Below, one piece after another: positions 8,553 through 31,999 of a stretch of 32,000 bases of DNA (the first letter of the stretch is position 1; every line of letters starts with the position of its first letter). The translations under genes and the position numbers were made by a program. Under the pieces are notes generated by a model, which saw only the letters and a program-made list of their open reading frames with translations, was not told the origin of the DNA and did not search any database. Origin of the DNA: Promethearchaeota archaeon (lineage in GTDB: Archaea > Asgardarchaeota > Lokiarchaeia > Sigyniarchaeales > SOKP01). The stretch is taken from NCBI GenBank assembly GCA_030606485.1, contig JAUWGH010000001.1, positions 660,001 to 692,000 on the forward strand, given 5' to 3'.

Positions 8553-10187
8553 TTATTTTAATCGAGCATAAAGATTTTTATCATTATCAATTCCATCCAA
8601 TAATATTTGTGCATCCCTATTATCTAATGAAAGTGTAATATTTCCCTTTCTACTAAAGCACCCAGTAAATATAATTCTTGACCCAGAATATATATTTACA
8701 TTTTTTCCACCATAAATTTCATCTGCTGAGATGATAATGCTGTCATCCGATATTTCCAAATCTATTTGGATTCTCTCTTTTTTTTTCCCCTTTCTTGTTC
8801 TTCCACCAGTTTGATATGTTCCGGAATCTTGCTTTGATATGGGGTTGATTACAACATCTTGCCCAAATGAATATATCTCAAACATAAGATTCTTTGATAA
8901 AAAATTTCTTACTTCTACGACAGGCCTTGCCAAATCTTTATCTCGGAAGCCCGAGGGAACTTTTACGGTCATTTTTATCACCAACACAGATGATACTTCT
9001 CCCCCCTTTATGAAAATTATGGTGTCTATAATGGATGGAAGCATTCCAAGCTCGATTCGGCCAATAAATCTCTGCAAAGCGTCAATAGCTGAAGAAGAGT
9101 GCACTATGCCCGCCATTCCTACGCCACTTAAACGGAAATCAGAGTAGACCTTGAAATCGTCCGTGGTTCTAACTTCATCGAAAATTGTGAAATCTGGTCT
9201 TGCTAAAAGAAGTATATCTGCAGAATTTTCTAAACTACCTTCCAATTTTGTATATTGAGTTATTTCGGGGTTAACTTGTAAATCTCTAACGCTTTCTAAC
9301 GTTTTAACAATTTTATTTTGTTTTAAGTAATTATTTGCTAATGCTGCAGCGAATGTGCTTTTACCAGCTCCTGGAGGTCCGCAAATGAGAATGCCCTCCG
9401 CAATCTTTAATCGTTTCATTAATGTATTGTCAAGATTATAATCATGAAGCTCTTTTCTAATTAGGGGTTTGGTTATTGTAACTTCAACTTCACTAGAAAA
9501 ATTTGGTCGAGTTATTACGATTCTATACTCATATAAAATTGCTACGATCGCCCCTTTTTTCTCAATTTCGATAAATGAGTGAGGGTCTTCTTTCACAGCC
9601 TCAAGAATTTCATAAATAATATCTTCAATTTGTTTTGTAGTTATATATTCATCATTGATCTTGCTTAAATACCAATTTCCTGGAGTCCCTTTTTTTGCGT
9701 AGGGTGGAATATATCTTTTAAGATGAACTGACATTGTATTTTCATCAAAAAAATCGAATAATTTTAAATGCGGTAATCCTTTTTTCTTCTTTTTGACTTC
9801 TTCTTTAATTAGGATCACATTTAAGCCCTCAAAAATACCCATATCATATTGAACTTTATCTCCCGTAATTAAAGTGGCATCATGCGTATCTTGGCGAATG
9901 GCTGCATCTAATTCCCCCCCATAATTAAGTTTTATTTGTTCCATAGTGGGACGTTTTCCTACTAATTCTAGTTTAATTTTTCCTTTATTATGATATTCCC
10001 TTAACTTTTTTAATACATCCAATCCATATTTACCAATTACTTTGCCTACATTTGCTTGAAATTCAATTTCTGCGGTAACGATTCTTGATATTAAAATAAT
10101 GGGTTTAATACCTAGTTCCTCTTCATCTATCAATTCTAATATTTTTCCATTCAGGATAACTGATGTATCCACAATAAATTTCTCCAT
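8553..10187 (-). CDS. PIN-domain VirB11-like ATPase (PINA / PINc-VapC family ATPase)
   Basis: N-terminal PIN (FIVDTSVI...GELDAAIR...LITGD), Walker A GPPGAGKST, Walker B FDEVR, GVGMAGIVH, RFIGRIELG. Confidence 0.92.
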   Translation of the reverse strand: MEKFIVDTSVILNGKILELIDEEELGIKPIILISRIVTAEIEFQANVGKVIGKYGLDVLKKLREYHNKGKIKLELVGKRPTMEQIKLNYGGELDAAIRQDTHDATLITGDKVQYDMGIFEGLNVILIKEEVKKKKKGLPHLKLFDFFDENTMSVHLKRYIPPYAKKGTPGNWYLSKINDEYITTKQIEDIIYEILEAVKEDPHSFIEIEKKGAIVAILYEYRIVITRPNFSSEVEVTITKPLIRKELHDYNLDNTLMKRLKIAEGILICGPPGAGKSTFAAALANNYLKQNKIVKTLESVRDLQVNPEITQYTKLEGSLENSADILLLARPDFTIFDEVRTTDDFKVYSDFRLSGVGMAGIVHSSSAIDALQRFIGRIELGMLPSIIDTIIFIKGGEVSSVLVIKMTVKVPSGFRDKDLARPVVEVRNFLSKNLMFEIYSFGQDVVINPISKQDSGTYQTGGRTRKGKKKERIQIDLEISDDSIIISADEIYGGKNVNIYSGSRIIFTGCFSRKGNITLSLDNRDAQILLDGIDNDKNLYARLK

Positions 10188-11604: not shown

Positions 11605-12673
11605 ATGAAAAAAAAAAGGGAAGTCAATTTTTTTTCATAGTATTCTACTTCTATTTTTTTTGATTTCTTTAAATCTATTCTGTAATAAAAATATTTTTAA
11701 TAGGAATAAGATTGAAACAGAAGATGAAATTTTATTCCCTCAATTATCTACAGCAAATTCATTTATAATTGAATGGTTTAGAATATGGAATGGAAGTGGA
11801 TTTGATTCATATAATGCAATAACATTGGATTCTTCAAGTAGTATTTATGTTGCAGGACATAGAAGAAGGAATGGAATAGAAAATTTTGATATATGTCTAT
11901 TAAAATATAATAGTTCAGGTATTCTACAATGGGATACTACATGGAGTGGAAGTTCTGATGATTATGGAAGTGGAGTAGCAATATATTCTTTAGGTAATAT
12001 TTATATTGCGGAATACACAGGGAGTTACGGGGTGGGAGCTTATGATTTGTGCCTTGCGAAATATGATAGTTCAGTCGTTCAGCAATGGAATCGTACATGG
12101 GGCGGAAGTGATTATGATGCAGGACGTGGAGTGGCAGTAGATTCTTCAGATAATATTTATGTTGCGGGATACACAAATAGTTTCGGGACGGAAGGAGAGG
12201 ATAGGTATTTTGTGAAGTTTGGTATTGATTCGGATGGAGATGGATTATCTAATTGGCAGGAAGTAAATATTTATCCCACCAATCCAAATGATCCAGATAC
12301 AGATGGTGATGGATTTAGTGATGGAGAAGATGCATTTAACGGTTATGATCCGAATAATAAATGGAGTAAATCCTTTCATGGCTATGATAATTATAATTAT
12401 CACAGTAATCATATTTCTGGCAATTTTAGGGATTATAATTTTTATATCTTATCAAGATTTAAAGAGAAATAGGGAAAAGGAACAATTAGAGAGGGAACTA
12501 GAGGAAAGAGAAGAAGAGAGAGAAAGAAAGCGTTTAGAAATTTTGGAAAATGTCAAGAATATTTTTCGAGTAGTAAATCTGTTGCTTTCGATCAACAGAC
12601 AAACATCGATGAGATTGATAAATTAATGGATGCCTATAAAGAGTTGGAAGGTAAAAAGTTCAAAAAAGAATAG
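11605..12673 (+). pseudogene. Decayed paralog of the SBBP propeller-TM-PCI gene (3 blades, 2 DxDGDG repeats, TM, PCI C-terminal remnant)
   Basis: ATG at 11605 needs a +1 correction (A10/T8 runs) to reach the SBBP frame; extra A at 12368-12370 shifts the TM into ORF 12288..12626; 12553-12555 replaces about 325 nt present in copy B (14391-14715); 12557-12673 encodes EYFSSSKSVAFDQQTNIDEIDKLMDAYKELEGKKFKKE*, matching the end of 14381..14833. Confidence 0.85.
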
Positions 12674-12884: not shown

Positions 12885-14375
12885 ATGAAATATAGAAAAA
12901 TTTACACTATAATATTCATTTTAATCTTGTATTTTACCTTCATATTACAACTAAATGACACGATTTTTTATAAACACGATAATAAGAGCAATAGAACTAT
13001 ATTACCCATTTTATCTACCGGTGATGCAACTGTTTATAAGTGGAATCGTACATGGGGCGGAAGTGATTCTGAATGTGGAAAAGGAGTGGCAGTAGATTCT
13101 TCAGGTAATATTTATGTTGCGGGAACCACGGGGACTCTCGAGACGGGAGGTAGTGATATGTGTCTTGTGAAATATGACAGTTCAGGCGTTCAGCAATGGA
13201 CTTGTACATGGGGGGGAAGTTCTAGTGATTATGGAAGTGGAGTGGCAGTAGATTCTTCAGGTAATATTTATGTTGCGGGAACCACGGGGGTTTTATTGGT
13301 TAATTTTTACCGATATTTGCATCCGATTTGTGGTGATATGTGCCTTGTGAAATATGACAGTTCAGGCGCTCAGCAATGGAATCGTACATGGGGCGGAAGT
13401 TCTGGTGATTATGGAAGTGGAGTGGCAGTAGATTCTTCAGGTAATATTTATATTGCAGGATACACTGAGAGTTTCGGGGCGGGAAGTTGGGACATGTGCC
13501 TTGTGAAATATGACAGTTCAGGCGTTCAGCAATGGAATCGTACATGGGGCGGCAGGTTTTATGATGCAGGACATGGATTAACATTAGATTCTTCAGGTAA
13601 TATTTATATCGTGGGATACACAAGGAGTTTCGGGGCGGGAAATTATGATATGTGTCTTGTGAAATATGACAGTTCAGGCGTTCAGCAATGGAATCGTACA
13701 TGGGGGGGAAGTGATGAAGATTATGGAAATGGAGTGGCAGTAGATTCTTCAGGTAATATTTATATTGCGGGATACACAGGGAGTTTCGGGGCGGGAGGTG
13801 GTGATATGTATCTTGTGAAATATGACAGTTCAGGCGTTCAGCAATGGAATCGTACATGGGGCGGAAGGTTTTATGATACAGGACATGGATTAACATTAGA
13901 TTCTTTAGGTAATATTTATATCGTGGGATACACATCGAGTTTCGGGGCGGGATATTCTGATATGTGCCTTGTGAAATATGACAGTTCAGGCGCTCAGCAA
14001 TGGAATCGCACATGGGGCGGAATTTTTATGGATGAAGGATTTGGATTAACATTAGATTCTTTAGGTAATATTTATATCGTGGGACGCACATGGAGTTTCG
14101 GGGCGGGAGCTCATGATATGTGCCTTGTGAAGTTTTTTATTGATTCGGATGGAGATGGATTTAGTGATGAAGAAGAGGCATTAAGCGGTTATGATCCGAA
14201 TAATAAATGGAGTAATCCTTTTATGTCTATGGTAATAATTACAATAATCATAATTCTGGCAATTTTGGGAGTTTTAATCTTTATAGTTTATCCTTATATA
14301 AAGAGAAATAGGGAAAAGGAACGATTAGAGAGGGAACTAGAGGAAAGAGAAAGAAGAGAGAAAGAAAGCGTTTAG
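12885..14375 (+). CDS. Membrane-anchored SBBP-repeat 7-bladed beta-propeller protein (N-terminal part of a probably frameshifted gene)
   Basis: Hydrophobic N-terminus, seven WNRTWGG...DSSGNIY..G...D.CLVKYD repeats, DSDGDGFSD Ca-binding-type motif, C-terminal TM and charged coiled coil. Confidence 0.9.
   Translation: MKYRKIYTIIFILILYFTFILQLNDTIFYKHDNKSNRTILPILSTGDATVYKWNRTWGGSDSECGKGVAVDSSGNIYVAGTTGTLETGGSDMCLVKYDSSGVQQWTCTWGGSSSDYGSGVAVDSSGNIYVAGTTGVLLVNFYRYLHPICGDMCLVKYDSSGAQQWNRTWGGSSGDYGSGVAVDSSGNIYIAGYTESFGAGSWDMCLVKYDSSGVQQWNRTWGGRFYDAGHGLTLDSSGNIYIVGYTRSFGAGNYDMCLVKYDSSGVQQWNRTWGGSDEDYGNGVAVDSSGNIYIAGYTGSFGAGGGDMYLVKYDSSGVQQWNRTWGGRFYDTGHGLTLDSLGNIYIVGYTSSFGAGYSDMCLVKYDSSGAQQWNRTWGGIFMDEGFGLTLDSLGNIYIVGRTWSFGAGAHDMCLVKFFIDSDGDGFSDEEEALSGYDPNNKWSNPFMSMVIITIIIILAILGVLIFIVYPYIKRNREKERLERELEERERREKESV
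13041..14135 (+). repeat. Seven tandem 156-bp (52-aa) SBBP blade repeats
   Basis: Units start at 13041, 13197 (180 bp), 13377, 13533, 13689, 13845 and 14001; near-invariant block ttgtgaaatatgacagttcaggcg(t/c)tcagcaatgga at the junctions. Confidence 0.97.
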
Positions 14376-16221: not shown

Positions 16222-16323
16222 TTAGTTTCTCAATTTTATTCTCTTAGATTTATTAAGAATCGCAATTACTCCTATTCCTGCAAGCAGTGAAATAATGATC
16301 CATCCATCAGGATATCCAGGAAT
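16222..16323 (-). other. Loki-CTERM-type C-terminal sorting signal
   Basis: IPGY at 16323-16312, then the hydrophobic segment WIIISLLAGIGVIAIL and the basic tail KSKRIKLRN, the tripartite form of archaeosortase-type signals. Confidence 0.75.
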
Positions 16324-19086
16324 CATGGGAGATGGTTCTTCTTCTTCCTCTTCTTCAGCTGTGATTAAATACAGAATACCATCACAAACTGGCGAAGTTT
16401 CTCCTACTGCATTTCGAAACTTAGCACAGATTGAATATTCCGTATTATTTAGGGATCCTTCTAGATATAACTGTTTTGCTGTAGCATAAGGTTCCCAATC
16501 AGTCCAAGCACCAGTAGTTCCATTTCTAAAGCACATTTCTACTGCTCCATCAGCCGAGAGCGTGAGATTCAATAAGGTAGAATTAGTACTGGCATCTCCA
16601 TTATTTATAATTATGGATGGATTCAATGGTATCGTCAAATATAATATGCTATCACAAACCGGTGTAGTTTCTCCTATTGCATTTCGAAATTTCACATAAA
16701 TTGAATATTGTGTGTTATTTATAGAACCTTCTAAATACAACTGTTTTGCTGTAGCATAAGGTTCCCAATCAGTCCAAGCACCAGTAGTTCCATTTCTAAA
16801 GCACATTTCTGTTGCTCCATACACTGAGAGCGTGAGATTCACCAAGGTAGAATTAGTACTGGCATCTCCATTATTTATAATTATGGATGGATTCAATGGA
16901 GGTATGAATACCAAATATAAAATGCTATCACCGACTGAGGAACTTTCTCCTATTTCATTTCGAAATTTCACATAAATTGAATATTGTGTGTTATTTATTA
17001 AATATTCTAAATATAACTGTTTTGTTGTACTATACGCCTCCCAACTGGTCCAATCACCGGTCGTTCCTTTTCTAAAGCACATTTCTACTGCTCCATCAGC
17101 CGAGAGCGTGAGATTCACAAAGTTAGAACCAAAACTGGCATCTCCATTATTTATAATTATGGATGGATTCAATGGAGGTGTGAATACCAAATATAAAATG
17201 CTATCACCGATTGGGGAAGTCTCTCCCATTGCATTTCGAAATTTCACATAAATTGAATATTCCGTATTGTTTATAGAGCCTTCTAAAACCAACTGTTTTG
17301 CTGTAGCATAAGGTTCCCAACTGGTCCAAGCACCGGTCGTTCCATTTCTAAAGCACATTTCTTCGGCTAAATCCGCCGAGAGCGTGAGAGTCACTAAGGC
17401 ATAATTAGTACAGGCATCTCCATTATTTATAATTATGGATAAATTCAATGGGATGGATATCAAATATAAAATGCTATCACCGATTGGGGAAGTCTCTCCT
17501 ATTGCATTTCGAAATTTCACATAAATTGAATATTCCGTATTGTTTATAGAGCCTTCTAAATACAACTGTTTTGCTGTAGCATAAGGTTCCCAACTGGTCC
17601 AAGCACCGGTCGTTCCATTTCTAAAGCACATTTCTTCGGCTAAATCCGCCGAGAGCGTGAGAGTCACTAAGGCAGAACCAGTACAGGCATCTCCATTATT
17701 TATAATTATGGAGGGAGGTGATATTAATTTTTTATAAAATATATCCTTATCCGTTCCTGAACCGCCATAATCCGTAGAATCATACCACGCAATGTGCACG
17801 TTTCCGGAACCGTCCGCTGCTATTGTTGGATATCTAGAATAACCAGTGCTTTCCGTGGAGACCACCTCGGTCGTGGTCCAGTTCGCCGTGGTCGCGTCCC
17901 AGTACTTATAAAATATATCCCTATCCATTCCCGAACCGCCATAATCCGTAGGATCATTCCACGCAATGTGCACGTTTCTGGAACCGTCCACTGCTATTGT
18001 TGGTTCCTCAGAATAACCAGTGCTTTCCGCGGAGACCACCTCGGTTGTGTTCCAGGCCGCCGTGGTCGCGTTCCAGTACTTATAAAATATATCCCAATCC
18101 GTTCCCGAACCGTTATAATTCGTATAATCATACCATGCAATGTGCACGTTTCCGGAATCGTCCACTGCTATTGTTGGACACCAAGAATCATCAGTGCTTT
18201 CCGTGGAGACCACCTCGGTTGTGGTCCAGGCCGCCGTGATCGCGTACCAGCGCTTATAAAATATATCAGCATCCGTTCCCGAACCGCTATAATCCGTCCA
18301 ATCCATCCATGTCAGGTGCAGGTTTCCGGAATCGTCCACTGCTATTGTTGGATAATAAGAATTATCAGCGCTTTCCGTGGAGACCACCTCGGTTGTGGTC
18401 CAGGCCGCCGTGTTTGCGTTCCAGCGCTTATAAAATATATCATCATCCGTTCCCGAACTGCCATAATCCGTCCGACCCTCCCACGCAATGTGCACGTTTC
18501 CGGAACCGTCCACTGCTATTGTTGGGTCATAAGAAAAATCAGTGCTTTCCGTGGAGACCACCTCGGTCGTGGTCCAGGCCGCCGTGGTCGTGTTCCAGCG
18601 CTTATAAAATATATCAAGATCCGTTCCCGAACCGTCATAATTCGTATAATCATACCATGCAATGTGAACGTTTCCGGAACCGTCCACTGCTATTGTTGGA
18701 TTATAAGATTTATCAGTGCTTTCCGTGGAGACCACCTCGGTTGTGGTCCAGGCCGCCGTGGTTGCGTTCCAGCGCTTATAAAATATATCAGCATCCGTTC
18801 CCGAACCGCCATAATTCGTAGAATCATACCACGCAATGTACACGTTTCCGGAATCGTCTACTGCTATTGTTTGACAAATAGAATCATGAATGCTTTCCGT
18901 GGAGACAACCTCGGTCGTGGTCCAATTCCAAGCAGAAATTTTTAATTCTTCTGAAAAGCTCTCTAAATCTTCGACAACATGATCCTTTAACAAATTGATG
19001 TTATTATAGAGATAAATAGCTGTGAAGCCACTAAAAAAAATGGTCAAAGAGATCAATAAAGCTAATTTAAATTTACTTCGTTTCAT
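16222..19086 (-). CDS. Large cell-surface glycoprotein: signal/TM, 7-blade beta-propeller, five Ig-like repeats, acidic linker, Loki-CTERM sorting signal
   Basis: 7x58-aa repeats, 5x ~90-aa repeats, many N-x-S/T sequons, E7 linker then IPGY-hydrophobic-basic tail; SD-like GGGAGT upstream. Confidence 0.92.
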   Translation of the reverse strand: MKRSKFKLALLISLTIFFSGFTAIYLYNNINLLKDHVVEDLESFSEELKISAWNWTTTEVVSTESIHDSICQTIAVDDSGNVYIAWYDSTNYGGSGTDADIFYKRWNATTAAWTTTEVVSTESTDKSYNPTIAVDGSGNVHIAWYDYTNYDGSGTDLDIFYKRWNTTTAAWTTTEVVSTESTDFSYDPTIAVDGSGNVHIAWEGRTDYGSSGTDDDIFYKRWNANTAAWTTTEVVSTESADNSYYPTIAVDDSGNLHLTWMDWTDYSGSGTDADIFYKRWYAITAAWTTTEVVSTESTDDSWCPTIAVDDSGNVHIAWYDYTNYNGSGTDWDIFYKYWNATTAAWNTTEVVSAESTGYSEEPTIAVDGSRNVHIAWNDPTDYGGSGMDRDIFYKYWDATTANWTTTEVVSTESTGYSRYPTIAADGSGNVHIAWYDSTDYGGSGTDKDIFYKKLISPPSIIINNGDACTGSALVTLTLSADLAEEMCFRNGTTGAWTSWEPYATAKQLYLEGSINNTEYSIYVKFRNAIGETSPIGDSILYLISIPLNLSIIINNGDACTNYALVTLTLSADLAEEMCFRNGTTGAWTSWEPYATAKQLVLEGSINNTEYSIYVKFRNAMGETSPIGDSILYLVFTPPLNPSIIINNGDASFGSNFVNLTLSADGAVEMCFRKGTTGDWTSWEAYSTTKQLYLEYLINNTQYSIYVKFRNEIGESSSVGDSILYLVFIPPLNPSIIINNGDASTNSTLVNLTLSVYGATEMCFRNGTTGAWTDWEPYATAKQLYLEGSINNTQYSIYVKFRNAIGETTPVCDSILYLTIPLNPSIIINNGDASTNSTLLNLTLSADGAVEMCFRNGTTGAWTDWEPYATAKQLYLEGSLNNTEYSICAKFRNAVGETSPVCDGILYLITAEEEEEEEPSPMIPGYPDGWIIISLLAGIGVIAILNKSKRIKLRN
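16360..17712 (-). repeat. Five tandem ~270-bp Ig-like repeats
   Basis: SIIINNGDA...LTLS...EMCFRNGTTGAWT.WEPYATAKQLYLEG..NNT.YSIYVKFRN..GE repeated five times, with near-identical DNA. Confidence 0.95.
17731..18924 (-). repeat. Seven tandem 174-bp (58-aa) beta-propeller blade repeats
   Basis: WTTTEVVSTES..S..PTIAVD.SGNVHIAW.D.T.Y.GSGTD.DIFYK.W repeated seven times with no indels. Confidence 0.97.
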
Positions 19087-19693: not shown

Positions 19694-20923
19694 TTATCGT
19701 TTTTTACTTTTCTGCAATATTTCCATAAAGCTTTCTAATTTATTTTTGAGTTGTTCTTCATTCATTTTTCTTGGATCGTTCATATCCGATTCAATAACAA
19801 GGGATGGAATACCTTCTTCTTCCATAAGCCGTTGTTTAAGATCATACAGTCCACATGAATTGGGTCGACAGGAAAGATTGTTGTGCAATATTAATCCATC
19901 AATCTTCCACTCCTTTATCACTCTTTTGAACTCCCTCACTCTTGTTTCAAGATCGTATATATACCAGAAAGACAACATAATTTTTGCCATAGCTTTGATT
20001 GGATTATTGATTATATACTCCTTGCTCATTGATGGATCTAAGAATTTCCCAAAAGAATAAGTATAAGGTTCAAATACAATAATTGCTCCCCATTGTTCCA
20101 AGATACCAAAAAATTTTAAATTATACCAGAATGGGATTCCTGAAAAAAGTAGCCGGAATTGTTCGTTCTCTAAGGCCCCGATACCATTATCTACTCTTTC
20201 TTGAGTCTCTTGATACATTTTTTTAAATACTCTAATTGGCTCTTTTAATCCGGGCATAGTAAAAAGTGGAAATATACCACCGAAAGTATCTTTGGTTGAT
20301 ACTGGGCAAGGTATTGTTTTTCTTAATTCAAAAATTTTAATCCAGTATTCACTTAACTCGTAGGAATTAGTAATAACCTCTCTTGATTTTTCTTCATTAT
20401 ATTCTTTTTTAGTTATTTCTGAGATCCAATCCATTAATTCAAGCATCTGTTCTTCTACATATGACTGATAATACTCCTTTTGTTTATTCGTAGTATTGCT
20501 AGTGACATGAGGGACATCAATTATATATAGTGGAACTTTATATCTTTGAGATTGGACTTGAAACCACTTTACATGAGTATCACATATTACATCTGCTGCA
20601 ACCATAAATGTTGGTGGTTTTATTCCACCTAAATCTATAGGTGCATTATTTAACATGGCTCCAACATTAGTTTTAAAATAGGAACATAAATCATAAGAAA
20701 AACCCAAATCTTCAGCAGATTCAATATATTTTTTTGAAACTTTCTGGGCGGCGGAAATAGTAGCTGCATTTTCAGGTAAAATTGGTTGAACGTCAAAAGT
20801 ATAAAGCATCTCGACAGAAGTCCCACTAGTAGCCCATGCCGTAGGGGTTCCATCTCGATAGGCTTGTTCTATAGCTAAATAATGGCGTCCCATTAAATTT
20901 TTAACTTTTAAAGATGAATTCAA
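19694..20923 (-). CDS. 2-hydroxyacyl-CoA dehydratase / class I benzoyl-CoA reductase-like Fe-S subunit (HgdA/BcrB/BzdO-like)
   Basis: PENAA, DLCSY, ICDTHVKWF, LSCRP and IESDMND motifs with three conserved Cys. Confidence 0.88.
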   Translation of the reverse strand: MNSSLKVKNLMGRHYLAIEQAYRDGTPTAWATSGTSVEMLYTFDVQPILPENAATISAAQKVSKKYIESAEDLGFSYDLCSYFKTNVGAMLNNAPIDLGGIKPPTFMVAADVICDTHVKWFQVQSQRYKVPLYIIDVPHVTSNTTNKQKEYYQSYVEEQMLELMDWISEITKKEYNEEKSREVITNSYELSEYWIKIFELRKTIPCPVSTKDTFGGIFPLFTMPGLKEPIRVFKKMYQETQERVDNGIGALENEQFRLLFSGIPFWYNLKFFGILEQWGAIIVFEPYTYSFGKFLDPSMSKEYIINNPIKAMAKIMLSFWYIYDLETRVREFKRVIKEWKIDGLILHNNLSCRPNSCGLYDLKQRLMEEEGIPSLVIESDMNDPRKMNEEQLKNKLESFMEILQKSKKR

Positions 20924-20949: not shown

Positions 20950-22011
20950 TTATTTTTTAACACCTCCTAATATTTCTTTAAAAGCTTCGAATTTCGTCGT
21001 GAGTTGGTTATACGAGTCTCTCTTGTATTCTTTTTCTAAAAAAATAAAAGGCATTCCCATTTCTTTAAATGAATCTCTAAAAAAGGGATATTCATAAAGT
21101 AAAGGCTCACAAAACTTTTGAACCAAACATATTACTCCCTGAACTTGATACTTTTTAGCAAGACCTTTAATAAAATCGAACCTCCCCGATGAAGGATGTT
21201 CGGTGGAATAGGGTGGTTTTGATAAATGAAAGTTCGCAATATCTTTTATGGGGTCTCCAGTTATTTCTATTTTATTATGAAAATATCTTGTACCAATGCA
21301 TAAATCGTCAGTAATAATTTCAAAACCTAAGCTTTCTAGATATTTAAGTATTTCTGTATCATCTAAAATAGAGCCGGTTAATAAAATCCTTTTTTTACTA
21401 CCATCAACGTAGGGTAAAGGTTCTTTGATTTCCAACTTTTTTAATTTTTCTTTTAAGTTGTGTAAAACATCCTTTTTATCCGATTTATATGCATTTTTAA
21501 TAATTGCATGAAATTCTGATCCTAACAATAAACCTTTATTTCTATATTCAGAAATCTTTTTTAATAACTTACGAATTTCATTCGTTAAATTTATTGCTTC
21601 ATAAAGTTTTTTATCAGTTATTTCAACTCCAAAATGTTCTTCTAGTTGAAATTTTAATTCTTTTAAGTCATTAATGAAAAATTTTAAAGATAATTTATCT
21701 CGCTTCAATGGTGCATTTAAATAATAATAAAAATCATAGGAAACATGCTCAAACCATATATCATATTCGCGATTTGAACAATCACATGCGTGAGTTATAA
21801 TAATTCCTTTTATTTCTTTATCCAATCCATTTAACCCTCTCTGAAGGCAATTTCTTGCCCAGAAACAATGATTTGGGGGCACGAATTTATTAGCATCCAT
21901 TAGATCAATTGTCGGATCCCCAAAAATTCTATATGGGATTAAATTCGCTGCCATAATTAATTCTTCTGGAGTATTAAAACTTGGATCAATATAACCTATT
22001 TTGTAAGCCAT
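20950..22011 (-). CDS. 2-hydroxyacyl-CoA dehydratase / BCR-like Fe-S subunit (HgdB/BcrC/BzdN-like)
   Basis: TPEELIMAA, HCFWARNC, HACDC, DDLCIG.RYF, QKFCEP and LTTKFEAF motifs. Confidence 0.88.
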   Translation of the reverse strand: MAYKIGYIDPSFNTPEELIMAANLIPYRIFGDPTIDLMDANKFVPPNHCFWARNCLQRGLNGLDKEIKGIIITHACDCSNREYDIWFEHVSYDFYYYLNAPLKRDKLSLKFFINDLKELKFQLEEHFGVEITDKKLYEAINLTNEIRKLLKKISEYRNKGLLLGSEFHAIIKNAYKSDKKDVLHNLKEKLKKLEIKEPLPYVDGSKKRILLTGSILDDTEILKYLESLGFEIITDDLCIGTRYFHNKIEITGDPIKDIANFHLSKPPYSTEHPSSGRFDFIKGLAKKYQVQGVICLVQKFCEPLLYEYPFFRDSFKEMGMPFIFLEKEYKRDSYNQLTTKFEAFKEILGGVKK

Positions 22012-28969: not shown

Positions 28970-30454
28970 TTAATTATTTTCTCTCCTAATTAGATAATTT
29001 AAAAGAATAACAGAAACCAAACAGAGAGTATTAATTGTAATCCATAAACTATAATATAAATCGACAGGTAAATACCAGAGAGGTTGAGTTAAATTAGCAA
29101 ATTTATGGGGCTCATTGGTTTTAACATAATTAACACCTAAGCACCAAAGTTGGGAATAAAGTTCTATGAAATCAACAGTATATGCAACCACCGAAATATT
29201 TGCTTCCGAATACTCTTTAAATTGTGTATTACTCAAACTATAATGAGTGTTAATTACATTATAATCCGATGTTAAAAACTCATCAACAGAACAAGCACTC
29301 CTCATTTTTGTTATATTATGGGCTTTATCTTCTATCACGTTAAATAATTCATCACCAGCGGATATCCAAATCTTATCCTCAATTCCAGCAGCGACAATTA
29401 GGTCTATACAAATATTGTAAAATTGTGAACGATATGGATGACTTTCGGGAGGTCTAATAAGTTCACAATCAAAAATAAGATTGTTATCTCTAGTAAAATT
29501 TAAAGCTTCTTCAAATGTTGGAATTTTTATCCCTCGATACACTTCCGCTTGACTGGGAGTGATAAGACCTTTAGTTATAGCATAATAAGGATCTTTATCA
29601 ACAAACCATGATCCTGCATCAAGTTGTTCAAGTTCAGAAAAAGTAAAATTGCTTGCTCTTAAATCTGCACGGTCAGAAAAAACTATTTCAACATTAGTTG
29701 TACGCTTGAGTGTAGAATCGTGCATTAAAAATGGTACACCATCGTAGCTGATTCGAATATCAGATTCCCATCCAATACACTCATAATCGACGGCAACTTC
29801 TATGGCTTTAATTGTATTTTCTGGGGCAAGATGTGAAGCCCCACGATGAGCAACGATACCAGGTTTAGGAGGTAAAGGTCCTTCAATAATATTTGCAGGC
29901 ACATATAAAAAGGGCAGACTAAAGATAAATCCATAAGCCGTGATAAAACAACTTAAAATCAAAATAGATTTAGGTTGTCTTATTGAGGTCTTTATTATTG
30001 CAAGAATAGGGTCTGCAATAATTGCTATGCTAATAGCACCTCCAATAAAAATTAATATATTTATATTTTCAAAAAGATGAGATACTATTGCCGCTTCCTC
30101 ACCGAATAGATTTAACATTATAAATAAAAGTGCATTGAAAATAATAATAAGAATTATTGCAATAATTTTATGTACTATATGAGGATCAATTCGATTAATT
30201 GTAAAAATATTTTTAAGATTGATTGTTAATAAAACAGCAGAATATATTAGTGGAATTCCAATGATAATCAAAAAAATTAGAATATAATTTGCTTTGGATT
30301 CTATGAAATCTCCAAGATATTCATTAAATTCTGGCCAAAGCGGTTCTATCGCAATAAGAATCATTTCAAAAATAAATAAACTAATAAAAGCAATTATGAA
30401 TACTAGAAGCCATCTTTTACCTTGTTTTCTATAAATTGATTCATACCAACGCAT
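28970..30454 (-). CDS. Six-TM glycerophosphodiester phosphodiesterase, GDE2/GDE3/GDE6-like
   Basis: Five N-terminal TMs, AHRG / PENT / ESD / DGVPFLMHD catalytic motifs, one C-terminal TM. Confidence 0.9.
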   Translation of the reverse strand: MRWYESIYRKQGKRWLLVFIIAFISLFIFEMILIAIEPLWPEFNEYLGDFIESKANYILIFLIIIGIPLIYSAVLLTINLKNIFTINRIDPHIVHKIIAIILIIIFNALLFIMLNLFGEEAAIVSHLFENINILIFIGGAISIAIIADPILAIIKTSIRQPKSILILSCFITAYGFIFSLPFLYVPANIIEGPLPPKPGIVAHRGASHLAPENTIKAIEVAVDYECIGWESDIRISYDGVPFLMHDSTLKRTTNVEIVFSDRADLRASNFTFSELEQLDAGSWFVDKDPYYAITKGLITPSQAEVYRGIKIPTFEEALNFTRDNNLIFDCELIRPPESHPYRSQFYNICIDLIVAAGIEDKIWISAGDELFNVIEDKAHNITKMRSACSVDEFLTSDYNVINTHYSLSNTQFKEYSEANISVVAYTVDFIELYSQLWCLGVNYVKTNEPHKFANLTQPLWYLPVDLYYSLWITINTLCLVSVILLNYLIRRENN

Positions 30455-30490: not shown

Positions 30491-31999
30491 TTAGTTATGA
30501 CTATTCGATTTTCTCATTTTTTTGTGTTTTAAAACTTGACCATTTAGAACGCCTAAATGTTCTCCTTTTGCAACAGTGATTTTACCGTTTACAATGACAT
30601 AATCAATACCCTCCGGATATTGACGACCATTTTCATATGTCGAATTATCTCTAATTGTTTGAGGGTCAAAAATAACTAAATCGGCTTTATAATTTTGTTT
30701 GATTATTCCTCTATCTCTAAGTCTTAAAATGCTTGCGGGTAAAGAAGTCATTTTTCGAATAGCTTCTTCTAAAGATACAATTTGCTTCTCTCTAACATAT
30801 CTTGATAAAATTCTAGGAAAAGTACCATAAGAACGGGGATGAGTATTTCCCTCAATAACCAAAAATCCATCAGAGCCTACACAAACAAAATCTTGTTTAA
30901 ATAATGATAAAATACTTTTCTCCTCACTCATCTGCCTTATGGAAATCATTATGGAGCCTTCTTCATCTCTAATGAAATCTAATACAGCATCGTAAAATGA
31001 TCTTTTTGGATAAAGATTTTTTAATGCCTCGCCTAAAAATTTTCCTTCAATATGATGGTTTTTTAAAACACTAATTATTCTTATGTCTTTCTTGAAAGAG
31101 GAAAAAATTAGTTGTTTCATTAAGAATTTTGGAATAATCCGAATAATGAAAGGAAGATCTGATAAAAAAGTCGAGAATATCAAATCTAGGATTTCTGTAA
31201 CAATTTTTTTCCTTGCTTCTGAATTGGTTAAATTTTGTTCAAAATCATCATAAACCCAAGGGTTAAGTAAAATGCCTGATAAGCTGGTTGACGATTCTTC
31301 ATATGGATATAAATCCGCATGAAGAAAAATTCCTTGCTCCTCCTTAACATTTTTAATTAGATTTATGATATCAGGAGTGTATTTCCAAGCAAATTTACTT
31401 ACAGTTTTTAAATGAGAAATATGGACGCGAACATTCGAATTTTTGGCAATCTCTATAACCTCTCTAATTCCTTGTTCTATTATCCTTGTTCCTTCATTTC
31501 TCATATGTGTATCATATAAACCTCCATAATTATTTACAACCTTACAAAGTTCAATAATTTCATATGTTGAAGTGATTGAACCCGGAGGATAAACCAATCC
31601 CGTAGATAAACCAAAGGCGCCTATTTCCATTTCCTTTTTTACTATTTCTTTCATTTCCTCAAGTTCTTCTGAGGTCGCTGAACGATCTTCCAATCCTAAA
31701 ATGCAAACTCTTACATTTCCATGAGGTATAAAAAAAACAAGATTCGTTGAAACGCCTTTTTTCTTGAGTGCTTCCATATAATCTTGAAGGGAATCATATA
31801 ATTGTGATACTGATGAACCAAAAGCCTTAGTTATAAAGTTAGAATAATATTTTCGAACTTTTTCATTTGCGGGTGCTCGCCCAATTCCACACATCCCTAC
31901 TACAAGTGTTGTAACACCCTGCATTATGGCGGCTTCTGCTTTATTTACTTCTAATATAGTTAAATCAGCATGAGAATGCATGTCAATAAATCCAGGTGC
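30491..31999 (-). CDS. N-acyl-D-amino-acid deacylase (D-aminoacylase, amidohydrolase), 5'-truncated by window
   Basis: Frame is open to the window edge (APGFIDMHSHAD); QGVTT, GLVYPPG, THMRNE, HISHLK, HPRSYGTFPR, EEAIRKMTS. Confidence 0.93.
   Translation of the reverse strand, partial: APGFIDMHSHADLTILEVNKAEAAIMQGVTTLVVGMCGIGRAPANEKVRKYYSNFITKAFGSSVSQLYDSLQDYMEALKKKGVSTNLVFFIPHGNVRVCILGLEDRSATSEELEEMKEIVKKEMEIGAFGLSTGLVYPPGSITSTYEIIELCKVVNNYGGLYDTHMRNEGTRIIEQGIREVIEIAKNSNVRVHISHLKTVSKFAWKYTPDIINLIKNVKEEQGIFLHADLYPYEESSTSLSGILLNPWVYDDFEQNLTNSEARKKIVTEILDLIFSTFLSDLPFIIRIIPKFLMKQLIFSSFKKDIRIISVLKNHHIEGKFLGEALKNLYPKRSFYDAVLDFIRDEEGSIMISIRQMSEEKSILSLFKQDFVCVGSDGFLVIEGNTHPRSYGTFPRILSRYVREKQIVSLEEAIRKMTSLPASILRLRDRGIIKQNYKADLVIFDPQTIRDNSTYENGRQYPEGIDYVIVNGKITVAKGEHLGVLNGQVLKHKKMRKSNSHN

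Follow-up and report, generated by a model that had tools for sequence, protein, structure and literature searches.

The membrane phosphodiesterases GDE2, GDE3 and GDE6 have been studied almost wholly as animal enzymes, in neuronal differentiation, motor-neuron survival and the shedding of uPAR, glypican and RECK. These proteins (GDPD5, GDPD2 and GDPD4, respectively) are ecto-phosphodiesterases with six transmembrane (TM) helices that cleave glycosylphosphatidylinositol (GPI) anchors, GDE2 in the manner of a phospholipase D (PLD) and GDE3 in that of a phospholipase C (PLC) (PMC7033719, PMC5576486, PMC10070723), and the family is defined by the placement of those helices, of which five precede the GDPD domain and one follows it (PMC7033719). 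Here we describe a protein of this design, P0001, encoded in the genome of a Lokiarchaeia archaeon (Promethearchaeota archaeon, GenBank assembly GCA_030606485.1) within a stretch of 32,000 nucleotides, hereafter the window (contig JAUWGH010000001.1, positions 660,001 to 692,000). An earlier note on this DNA had proposed that the gene encodes an animal-type six-TM phosphodiesterase, a candidate eukaryotic signature protein (ESP) and an ortholog-like ancestor of the GPI-shedding enzymes. The observation behind that proposal is confirmed by our analysis, and the interpretation put on it is partly supported. P0001 is very probably a genuine archaeal member of the six-TM GDPD family, of which the animal enzymes GDE2, GDE3 and GDE6 alone have been studied. 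We propose for P0001 the role of an outward-facing, metal-dependent phosphodiesterase acting on a membrane-proximal substrate.

The gene is an intact open reading frame (ORF) on the minus strand at window positions 28970-30454, with an ATG start and no internal stops, and encodes 494 amino acids. Kyte-Doolittle hydropathy places N-terminal helices at about residues 15-37, 56-78, 95-117, 130-152, and 163-185, and a single C-terminal hydrophobic helix at about residues 466-490. The helices of an AlphaFold model (13-35, 57-85, 93-130, 132-156, and 161-183, with pLDDT of about 90 or more, and the C-terminal 464-493) yield the same 5+1 layout, and a Pfam search finds PF03009 (GDPD) at residues 203-428 (E 1.5e-20). 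ORF, hydropathy, Pfam, and AlphaFold therefore agree on the five N-terminal helices, GDPD domain and sixth helix that had first drawn attention to the gene. The predicted catalytic and metal-binding set comprises H203, R204, E230, D232, H245, and E331. The first five are kept in all or nearly all rows of an alignment of 96 six-TM family members, being invariant in the Asgard and Chloroflexota rows and having one to four animal exceptions per site, while site 331 is acidic, Glu in P0001 and Asp in most family members; the catalytic residues are retained, as the earlier note had read them. H203 aligns with the histidine that is altered in H233A, the mutation that makes GDE2 catalytically dead (PMC7033719). 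In the sixth TM helix, W471 is near-invariant across the family. The four predicted inner segments (the N-terminus, loops 79-94 and 153-162, and the C-terminal tail) carry 12 lysine and arginine residues, compared with one in the two short outer loops, a split that fits cytoplasmic N- and C-termini with the GDPD domain outside; this predicted topology matches the positive-inside rule and would also be expected by analogy with GDE2.

To place P0001 among known proteins, 1.84 billion cluster representatives were searched exhaustively with phmmer, and the best 150 representatives, only about 30 of them named, were examined. There were 138 matches below E 1e-30. Ranking after the Asgard proteins are many proteins of 540-650 amino acids with 26-31% identity to P0001, aligned from the first to the last TM helix (about residues 15-490). 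They include animal GDPD2, GDPD4, and GDPD5 at E 1e-44 to 1e-58, for example, bird GDPD2 (3.8e-58), Xenopus GDPD5 (2.2e-54), crinoid GDPD5 (1.4e-52), marsupial and trout GDPD4, and one annelid protein; values of this order in a library of 1.8 billion proteins exclude a chance match. The named GDPD2/4/5 rows have the same 5+1 TM layout, and those rows among the best 150 that do not have it are matched at E 1e-29 or weaker, or are fragments. A BLASTP alignment of P0001 with Xenopus GDPD5 (P0166) extends over 496 columns and P0001 residues 2-483 with 29% identity (E 1e-62). The blocks common to the two proteins, DGVPFLMHDSTL+RTTN, L(D/N)AG.WFV..DP(Y/F), HPY.S.F, YTV..(L)YS.LWC.GV, and P(L/I)W.(L/M)P.D.YY..WIT, are the same as those that the earlier note had quoted. 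By these alignments P0001 is a full-length homolog of GDPD2, GDPD5, and GDPD4, the TM region included. Non-animal eukaryotes were also matched: Mastigamoeba balamuthi (E 2.6e-84), Amoeba proteus, the ichthyosporean Chromosphaera perkinsii, and Toxoplasma/Hammondia. The description of P0001 as animal-type thus holds as far as full-length GDE2/3/6 homology is concerned, but is too narrow, since Amoebozoa, an ichthyosporean and Toxoplasma/Hammondia possess the six-TM GDE too. The M. balamuthi protein (P0127/P0259), which is the best eukaryotic match, apparently contains two GDPD units in one gene model of 886 amino acids.

The AlphaFold2 model of P0001, built from the 96-sequence alignment, has a pLDDT of 94.3 and a pTM of 0.91. 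Against the Protein Data Bank (PDB), Foldseek returned only soluble GDPD TIM barrels (2pz0, TM-score by target 0.85-0.87), and neither Foldseek nor sequence search of the PDB found a solved six-TM GDE. The second-best ESM-Atlas cluster is a chordate GP-PDE of 593 amino acids, which matches P0001 with a TM-score of 0.86 over 488 aligned residues that cover both bundle and barrel, prediction being compared here with prediction. The GDPDs of Bacillota that carry PF10110 (GPDPase_memb) likewise combine a polytopic membrane domain with a GDPD domain, but they have another type of membrane domain and arrange their domains in a different order; PF10110 is not matched by P0001, and these proteins reach a TM-score of just 0.52-0.53 against its model. 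The contrast between 0.86 and 0.52-0.53 points to the GDE2/3/6 design, rather than to this other kind of bacterial membrane GDPD. The model suggests that P0001 has that design in whole, with the bundle packed against the TIM barrel. Soluble or periplasmic GlpQ/UgpQ enzymes (PDB 2otd, 1zcc, 2pz0, 5t91) and the three soluble GDPD paralogs of the host share the TIM-barrel fold and catalytic residues with P0001, but they have no TM bundle, resemble it only in the first half of the domain and form a separate group in trees. NCBIfam and PDB sequence searches with P0001 found only the first half of soluble GlpQ/UgpQ-type enzymes, far under the family cut-offs.

Apart from the surprising likeness to animal proteins, nothing suggests that the gene is a eukaryotic contaminant, or that a generic GlpQ/UgpQ-type enzyme has gained TM helices by convergence, and both explanations are extremely improbable. 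The window (C10:660001-692000) belongs to a 13-contig, 3.75-Mb assembly that is 100% complete and 4.65% contaminated. The gene lies at about 689 kb of a contig longer than 690 kb, its G+C content is the low value of its surroundings (0.29-0.31), and an archaeal tRNA-splicing endonuclease and ordinary metabolic genes are encoded within the window. The closest named homologs of P0001, with 84-86% identity, come from metagenome-assembled genomes (MAGs) titled Promethearchaeia or Promethearchaeota archaeon, and homologs, most of them full-length, are present in 63 Asgard genomes, including the closed chromosomes of two cultured strains. The alignment to GDPD5 runs from residue 2 on, across all TM helices, and the soluble GDPDs form a separate group in trees. 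Contamination and convergence are refuted by this contig context, the Asgard-wide homologs, the TM-spanning alignment, and the tree separation, and the large contig, the complete Lokiarchaeia genome and the archaeal neighbors confirm the Asgard host.

A six-TM GDE, mostly full-length, was detected in 63 of 400 Asgard species genomes (match at E <= 1e-30). It is spread over several families and classes but is patchy, being found in 29/134 genomes of the window's own family and in 12/90 high-quality genomes. The carriers bear the source names Loki-, Hel-, Thor-, Sigyn-, Hermod-, and Hodarchaeota, and two of them are cultured organisms with closed chromosomes, Promethearchaeum syntrophicum MK-D1 (NZ_CP042905.2, with the gene at about 3,229,700-3,231,200) and Ca. 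Lokiarchaeum ossiferum Loki-B35 (CP104013.1). One copy is labeled Bathyarchaeia. Some of the six-TM proteins have received the Joint Genome Institute pipeline label "glycerophosphoinositol inositolphosphodiesterase". Tandem pairs of six-TM GDE genes, about 160 bp apart, occur in some Lokiarchaeia (G268:C42:26537-29708 and G255:C45:3-3022) and look like recent local duplications.

A metagenomic clade of 16 representatives was traced to bacteria, namely to MAGs of Brevefilum, Anaerolineaceae UBA4775, and further Chloroflexota. These Chloroflexota (Anaerolineae) proteins (L005-L011) have the same six-TM layout and family motifs as P0001, with 29% identity to it (E 6e-74), and belong to the same family in trees. 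They differ from P0001 in being bacterial, in forming their own clade (100/100), which stands next to the eukaryotes in the maximum likelihood (ML) tree, and in that some possess a C-terminal extension of about 90-150 residues (577-639 amino acids in total). They are also rare, with 3 of 401 sampled Chloroflexota genomes encoding one. The Brevefilum sp. MAG G400 has, besides its intact six-TM GDE, a second GDPD-type match (G400:C121:32546-33424) that is degraded by three in-frame stops (one TGA, two TAA) and is probably a pseudogene. Among the best 150 representatives, eukaryotic carriers comprise Metazoa, Ichthyosporea, Amoebozoa, and Apicomplexa; when the ichthyosporean protein was used as query in a word-indexed search, the matches were almost exclusively vertebrate GDPD5/4/2 and the eukaryotic sampling was not broadened. 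Among prokaryotes the family is centered on Asgard archaea, and it is common to several eukaryotic supergroups and a narrow Anaerolineae clade. The idea that it is exclusive to Asgards and eukaryotes does not survive the full six-TM protein of the Anaerolineae and the Bathyarchaeia-labeled copy: an ESP would be absent or nearly absent from other prokaryotes, and the six-TM GDE is not.

To examine the relationships between these groups, phylogenetic trees were constructed with FastTree (156 rows) and with IQ-TREE under LG+C20+F+G4-PMSF (94 and 87 rows). A rooted tree and approximately unbiased (AU) tests employed 59 rows and 496 columns under LG+F+G4, with seven soluble GDPDs as outgroup; P0236, a fragment of the Chloroflexota clade, was left out of the outgroup in the AU tests. 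In all trees the six-TM proteins of Asgards, bacteria, and eukaryotes form one group apart from soluble GDPDs. The internal branch between them and the seven soluble GDPDs has a length of 0.66-0.68 and an SH-aLRT of 90, and the host's three soluble paralogs are separate as well, so the phylogeny places P0001 with GDE2/3/6, as the earlier note had anticipated, and not with the soluble enzymes. The Asgard rows occupy one side of a branch with ultrafast bootstrap (UFBoot) 90 and SH-aLRT 94 (99/91 if an unplaced metagenomic sequence is counted in), the Chloroflexota rows are a tight group (100/100), and under LG+F+G4 the eukaryotes come out as a single clade (SH-aLRT 92). The ML rooted tree has the form (outgroup,(Asgard,(Chloroflexota,eukaryotes))).

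Other aspects of the trees are less stable. In the mixture-model tree the backbone that joins the Chloroflexota, a Mastigamoeba group and the other eukaryotes is weak (45/83). A Toxoplasma/Hammondia protein of 866 amino acids (P0257) falls inside Metazoa on a very long branch, and the placements of Mastigamoeba and Toxoplasma could represent separate transfers or acquisitions, or long-branch artefacts. In a mixture-model quick tree the outgroup is unstable, with four soluble GDPDs joining the Asgard side and the host's three paralogs joining long protist branches. P0162 is an odd basal sequence. Within the Asgards the gene tree does not match the class labels, as a Hodarchaeota-labeled copy stands beside P0047 among Promethearchaeota-labeled copies, and the Bathyarchaeia-labeled copy is found inside the clan. 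In the AU tests, trees constrained to unite Asgards with eukaryotes (p 0.10-0.11), eukaryotes with Chloroflexota (p 0.39-0.40), or Asgards with Chloroflexota (p 0.27-0.28) were not rejected, whereas the constraint uniting eukaryotes with the Hodarchaeota-labeled copy was rejected (p 4e-93, delta lnL 136). What emerges is one family with three groups, and the trees cannot decide between vertical descent from an Asgard ancestor and transfer into eukaryotes. The expression ortholog-like ancestor does not suit this picture: the Asgard proteins form a group of their own without eukaryotes nested inside it, the ML tree pairs the eukaryotes with Chloroflexota, and all three rootings survive the AU test.

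It is possible, although doubtful, that eukaryotic GDE2/3/6 descend vertically from the Asgard ancestor of eukaryotes, as befits an ESP, and that Anaerolineae received their copies later, by a side transfer. Asgards have the family much more often, and in greater diversity, than Chloroflexota (63/400, in several classes, compared with 3/401), but the eukaryotes lie outside the Asgard diversity, all Asgard rows being on one side of the 90/94 branch, and their union with the Hodarchaeota-labeled copy is the single grouping that was rejected. A clan of Asgards and eukaryotes survives the AU test; the ML tree joins the eukaryotes to bacteria instead, a topology that is nonetheless also compatible with vertical descent followed by transfer into Anaerolineae. 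The spread of eukaryotic members across Metazoa, Ichthyosporea, Amoebozoa, and Apicomplexa would suit an early eukaryotic origin, but the best 150 representatives include just these few lineages, too few to trace the family to the last eukaryotic common ancestor, and the unstable outgroup further weakens the case.

Horizontal spread is a serious possibility, if still short of probable. The six-TM GDE would then be a mobile prokaryotic gene that entered eukaryotes in one or more transfers, independently of eukaryogenesis, with an Anaerolineae-like bacterium or an Asgard archaeon as donor. The sister position of Chloroflexota and eukaryotes in the ML tree argues for such a history, but the alternative rootings all survive the AU tests, and the bacterial clade is too narrow to look like the home of the family. 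Patchiness both in Asgards and in eukaryotes would be expected of a mobile gene, as would the departure of the Asgard gene tree from the class labels of the Hodarchaeota- and Bathyarchaeia-labeled copies. The Mastigamoeba group, which stands apart from other eukaryotes in the mixture-model tree (weakly, at 45/83), and the Toxoplasma pair inside Metazoa also fit transfer, whereas the single eukaryotic clade under LG+F+G4 does not favor it. P0001 is at most a candidate for an ESP or an ancestor-like relative of the animal enzymes, as bacteria have the six-TM GDE too and the trees allow three rootings. In its most specific form, which we consider unlikely, vertical descent would mean that an Asgard ancestor already had a six-TM GDE that cut phosphodiester-linked head groups or anchors, for example, of inositol-phosphate lipids, at the outside of the archaeal membrane, and passed it on to eukaryotes, with the Anaerolineae copies due to side transfer. 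If all this is true, the release of lipid-anchored surface molecules by animal GDE2 and GDE3 would continue an Asgard surface-remodeling activity.

P0001 resembles animal GDE2/3/6 in the 5+1 TM layout, the predicted cytoplasmic termini, the 26-31% identity, the structural match of the models (TM-score 0.86), and the catalytic His/Arg/Glu/Asp/His. It differs in having neither the N-terminal cytoplasmic tail of about 30-45 residues nor the C-terminal one of 50-130 residues; in GDE2 these tails carry trafficking signals (PMC7033719). With both termini in the cytoplasm, the TIM barrel would be located at the outer membrane face, packed onto the helix bundle, where P0001 may act as a metal-dependent phosphodiesterase. 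The substrate is probably membrane-proximal, the head group of an outer-leaflet phospholipid, lysolipid or inositol lipid, and the cut could be PLC- or PLD-like, as in GDE3 and GDE2; free glycerophosphodiesters near the cell surface would be an alternative. A lipid head group seems to us the better candidate, compared with free diesters, because three soluble GDPD paralogs are already present in the host, because the catalytic domain is predicted to be fixed on a conserved helix bundle that would form a rigid mount (pTM 0.91), and because the studied relatives act in this way, GDE2 PLD-like and GDE3 PLC-like on GPI anchors. Lysolipid GDPDs, such as the Staphylococcus aureus lysophosphatidylglycerol phospholipase D (8ghh/8ghi) and a lysoplasmalogen-specific PLD (7ymq), are among the structural and sequence matches of P0001 and use the GDPD fold on a lipid head group, but they do not have the six-TM design and their sequences are only distantly similar (NCBIfam 52.6 bits, compared with a cut-off of 450).

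Also unlike the animal enzymes, the Asgard proteins group among themselves in all trees, and the host makes archaeal lipids and shows no PIGA domain, so a GPI anchor cannot simply be assumed to be the substrate. The 100%-complete host genome was searched for GPI machinery: no PIGA domain was found, Peptidase_C13 gave a partial match only, and the PIG-L family is present but generic, which is too weak to argue either way. A eukaryote-type GPI anchor in the host is not indicated by these domain matches. The host does encode inositol-1-phosphate synthase homologs, and inositol lipids are therefore possible substrates. A soluble GDPD paralog of the host (G000:C2:392395-393066) is located about 5.4 kb from one of these homologs (C2:398449-398766), and a joint role of the two in inositol-phosphodiester metabolism is possible.

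Being homologous to GPI-cleaving enzymes and built in the same way (PMC7033719, PMC5576486), P0001 might be expected to shed lipid-anchored surface proteins as animal GDE2 and GDE3 do, a candidate substrate being a surface protein of 954 amino acids encoded 10 kb away. This protein ends in a poly-Glu linker, the motif PMIPGY, a hydrophobic helix and a basic tail, which looks like a C-terminal sorting signal, and the inositol-1-phosphate synthase homologs make inositol lipids plausible. Shedding is nevertheless improbable. The 10 kb between the two genes are occupied by unrelated genes and amount to no linkage, PIGA was not found, and Peptidase_C13 is only partial. The archaeosortase/exosortase family PF09721 was not found in the host or in three of four same-genus relatives, the fourth (G148) having a match to a 65-residue fragment only. 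The occurrence of the GDE does not follow that of the sortase, with 29/134 genomes of family f1 and 8/14 of family f3 encoding the GDE, as against 8/134 and 0/14 for the sortase. An archaeosortase link of the six-TM GDE is thus unsupported by co-occurrence across Asgard families.

Several points weigh against the role that we propose for P0001, that of an outward-facing phosphodiesterase. Its activity, substrate, and topology are predicted throughout, from sequence and from studied relatives, and the outward orientation of the GDPD domain is itself a prediction from the positive-inside rule and the GDE2 analogy. The whole-protein structural match is of model with model, no six-TM GDE having been solved. 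The patchy occurrence in Asgards (12/90 high-quality genomes) means that the six-TM GDE is no core function. The gene neighborhood provides no functional hint, and in a comparison with three Asgard relatives nothing was kept beyond the genus.

A search of the literature found nothing that names the six-TM GDE family, GDPD5, or GDE2/3/6 in Asgards, the exceptions being two remarks on UgpQ. Manoharan et al. 2019 noted that UgpQ, which they reported for every one of the Loki- and Thorarchaeota, might supply glycerol-3-phosphate (PMC6737245), and in the UgpQ/PF03009 tree of Sun et al. 2021 some Lokiarchaeia genes cluster with eukaryotic homologs with low support (PMC9723677). The suggestion that the family had not previously been listed for Asgards is therefore right in that no paper names it there, but has to be qualified by the hint of Lokiarchaeia-eukaryote clustering in Sun et al. 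2021. An evolutionary account of the six-helix GDE design was likewise not found in the searchable literature. The presence of the whole protein, bundle included, in many Asgards and a few sediment bacteria moves the origin of the design into prokaryotes. With regard to eukaryogenesis, we regard the six-TM GDE as a candidate for a membrane-surface enzyme common to Asgards and eukaryotes, and not as a clean signature protein. Both cultured Lokiarchaeia have the gene, so that its substrate and any influence on the cell surface are directly testable, and the small tail-less archaeal versions offer themselves for structural work, given that no six-TM GDE has been solved.

The features of P0001 and other genes of the window are listed in Table 1.

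Table 1. Positions of the six-TM GDPD gene, its predicted parts and other genes in the 32,000-nucleotide window
Feature	Window position	Strand	Basis or remark
Whole six-TM GDPD gene, P0001, stop codon counted in	28970..30454	-	ORF list, translation
Residues 15-185, five-TM-helix bundle, N-terminus predicted cytoplasmic	29900..30412	-	Hydropathy, AlphaFold, Lys/Arg counts, alignment to Xenopus GDPD5 TM region
Residues 196-460, GDPD TIM-barrel catalytic domain, predicted extracellular	29075..29869	-	Pfam PF03009, Foldseek, residue conservation
Residues 467-488, sixth TM helix, followed by short basic tail IRRENN, predicted cytoplasmic	28991..29056	-	Hydropathy, AlphaFold helix 464-493, W471
Amidohydrolase (Amidohydro_3, D-aminoacylase-like)	30491-31999, past window end	-	Ends 36 bp upstream of the GDE gene, same strand
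954-residue secreted/surface repeat protein	16222-19086	-	About nine beta-propeller-like SBBP repeats, five tandem repeats of about 95 residues, C-terminal tail
Two further SBBP beta-propeller-repeat proteins	11660-12472, 12885-14375	+	GC skew there +0.36 to +0.39
Tandem 2-hydroxyacyl-CoA dehydratase D-component (HGD-D) genes	19694-20923, 20950-22011	-	Fits Lokiarchaeia amino-acid fermentation
544-residue protein	8553-10187	-	Weak nSTAND3 NTPase match, 26.3 bits compared with a cut-off of 27.2

In the same-genus relative ABR01 (L014), the same amidohydrolase is encoded upstream, with a sulfatase gene inserted before the GDE gene; more distant Asgards do not have it there. The two smaller SBBP proteins and the 954-residue protein constitute a cluster of repeat-rich surface proteins. 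Local G+C content rises to 0.45 at the gene of the 954-residue protein, compared with about 0.30 around it.

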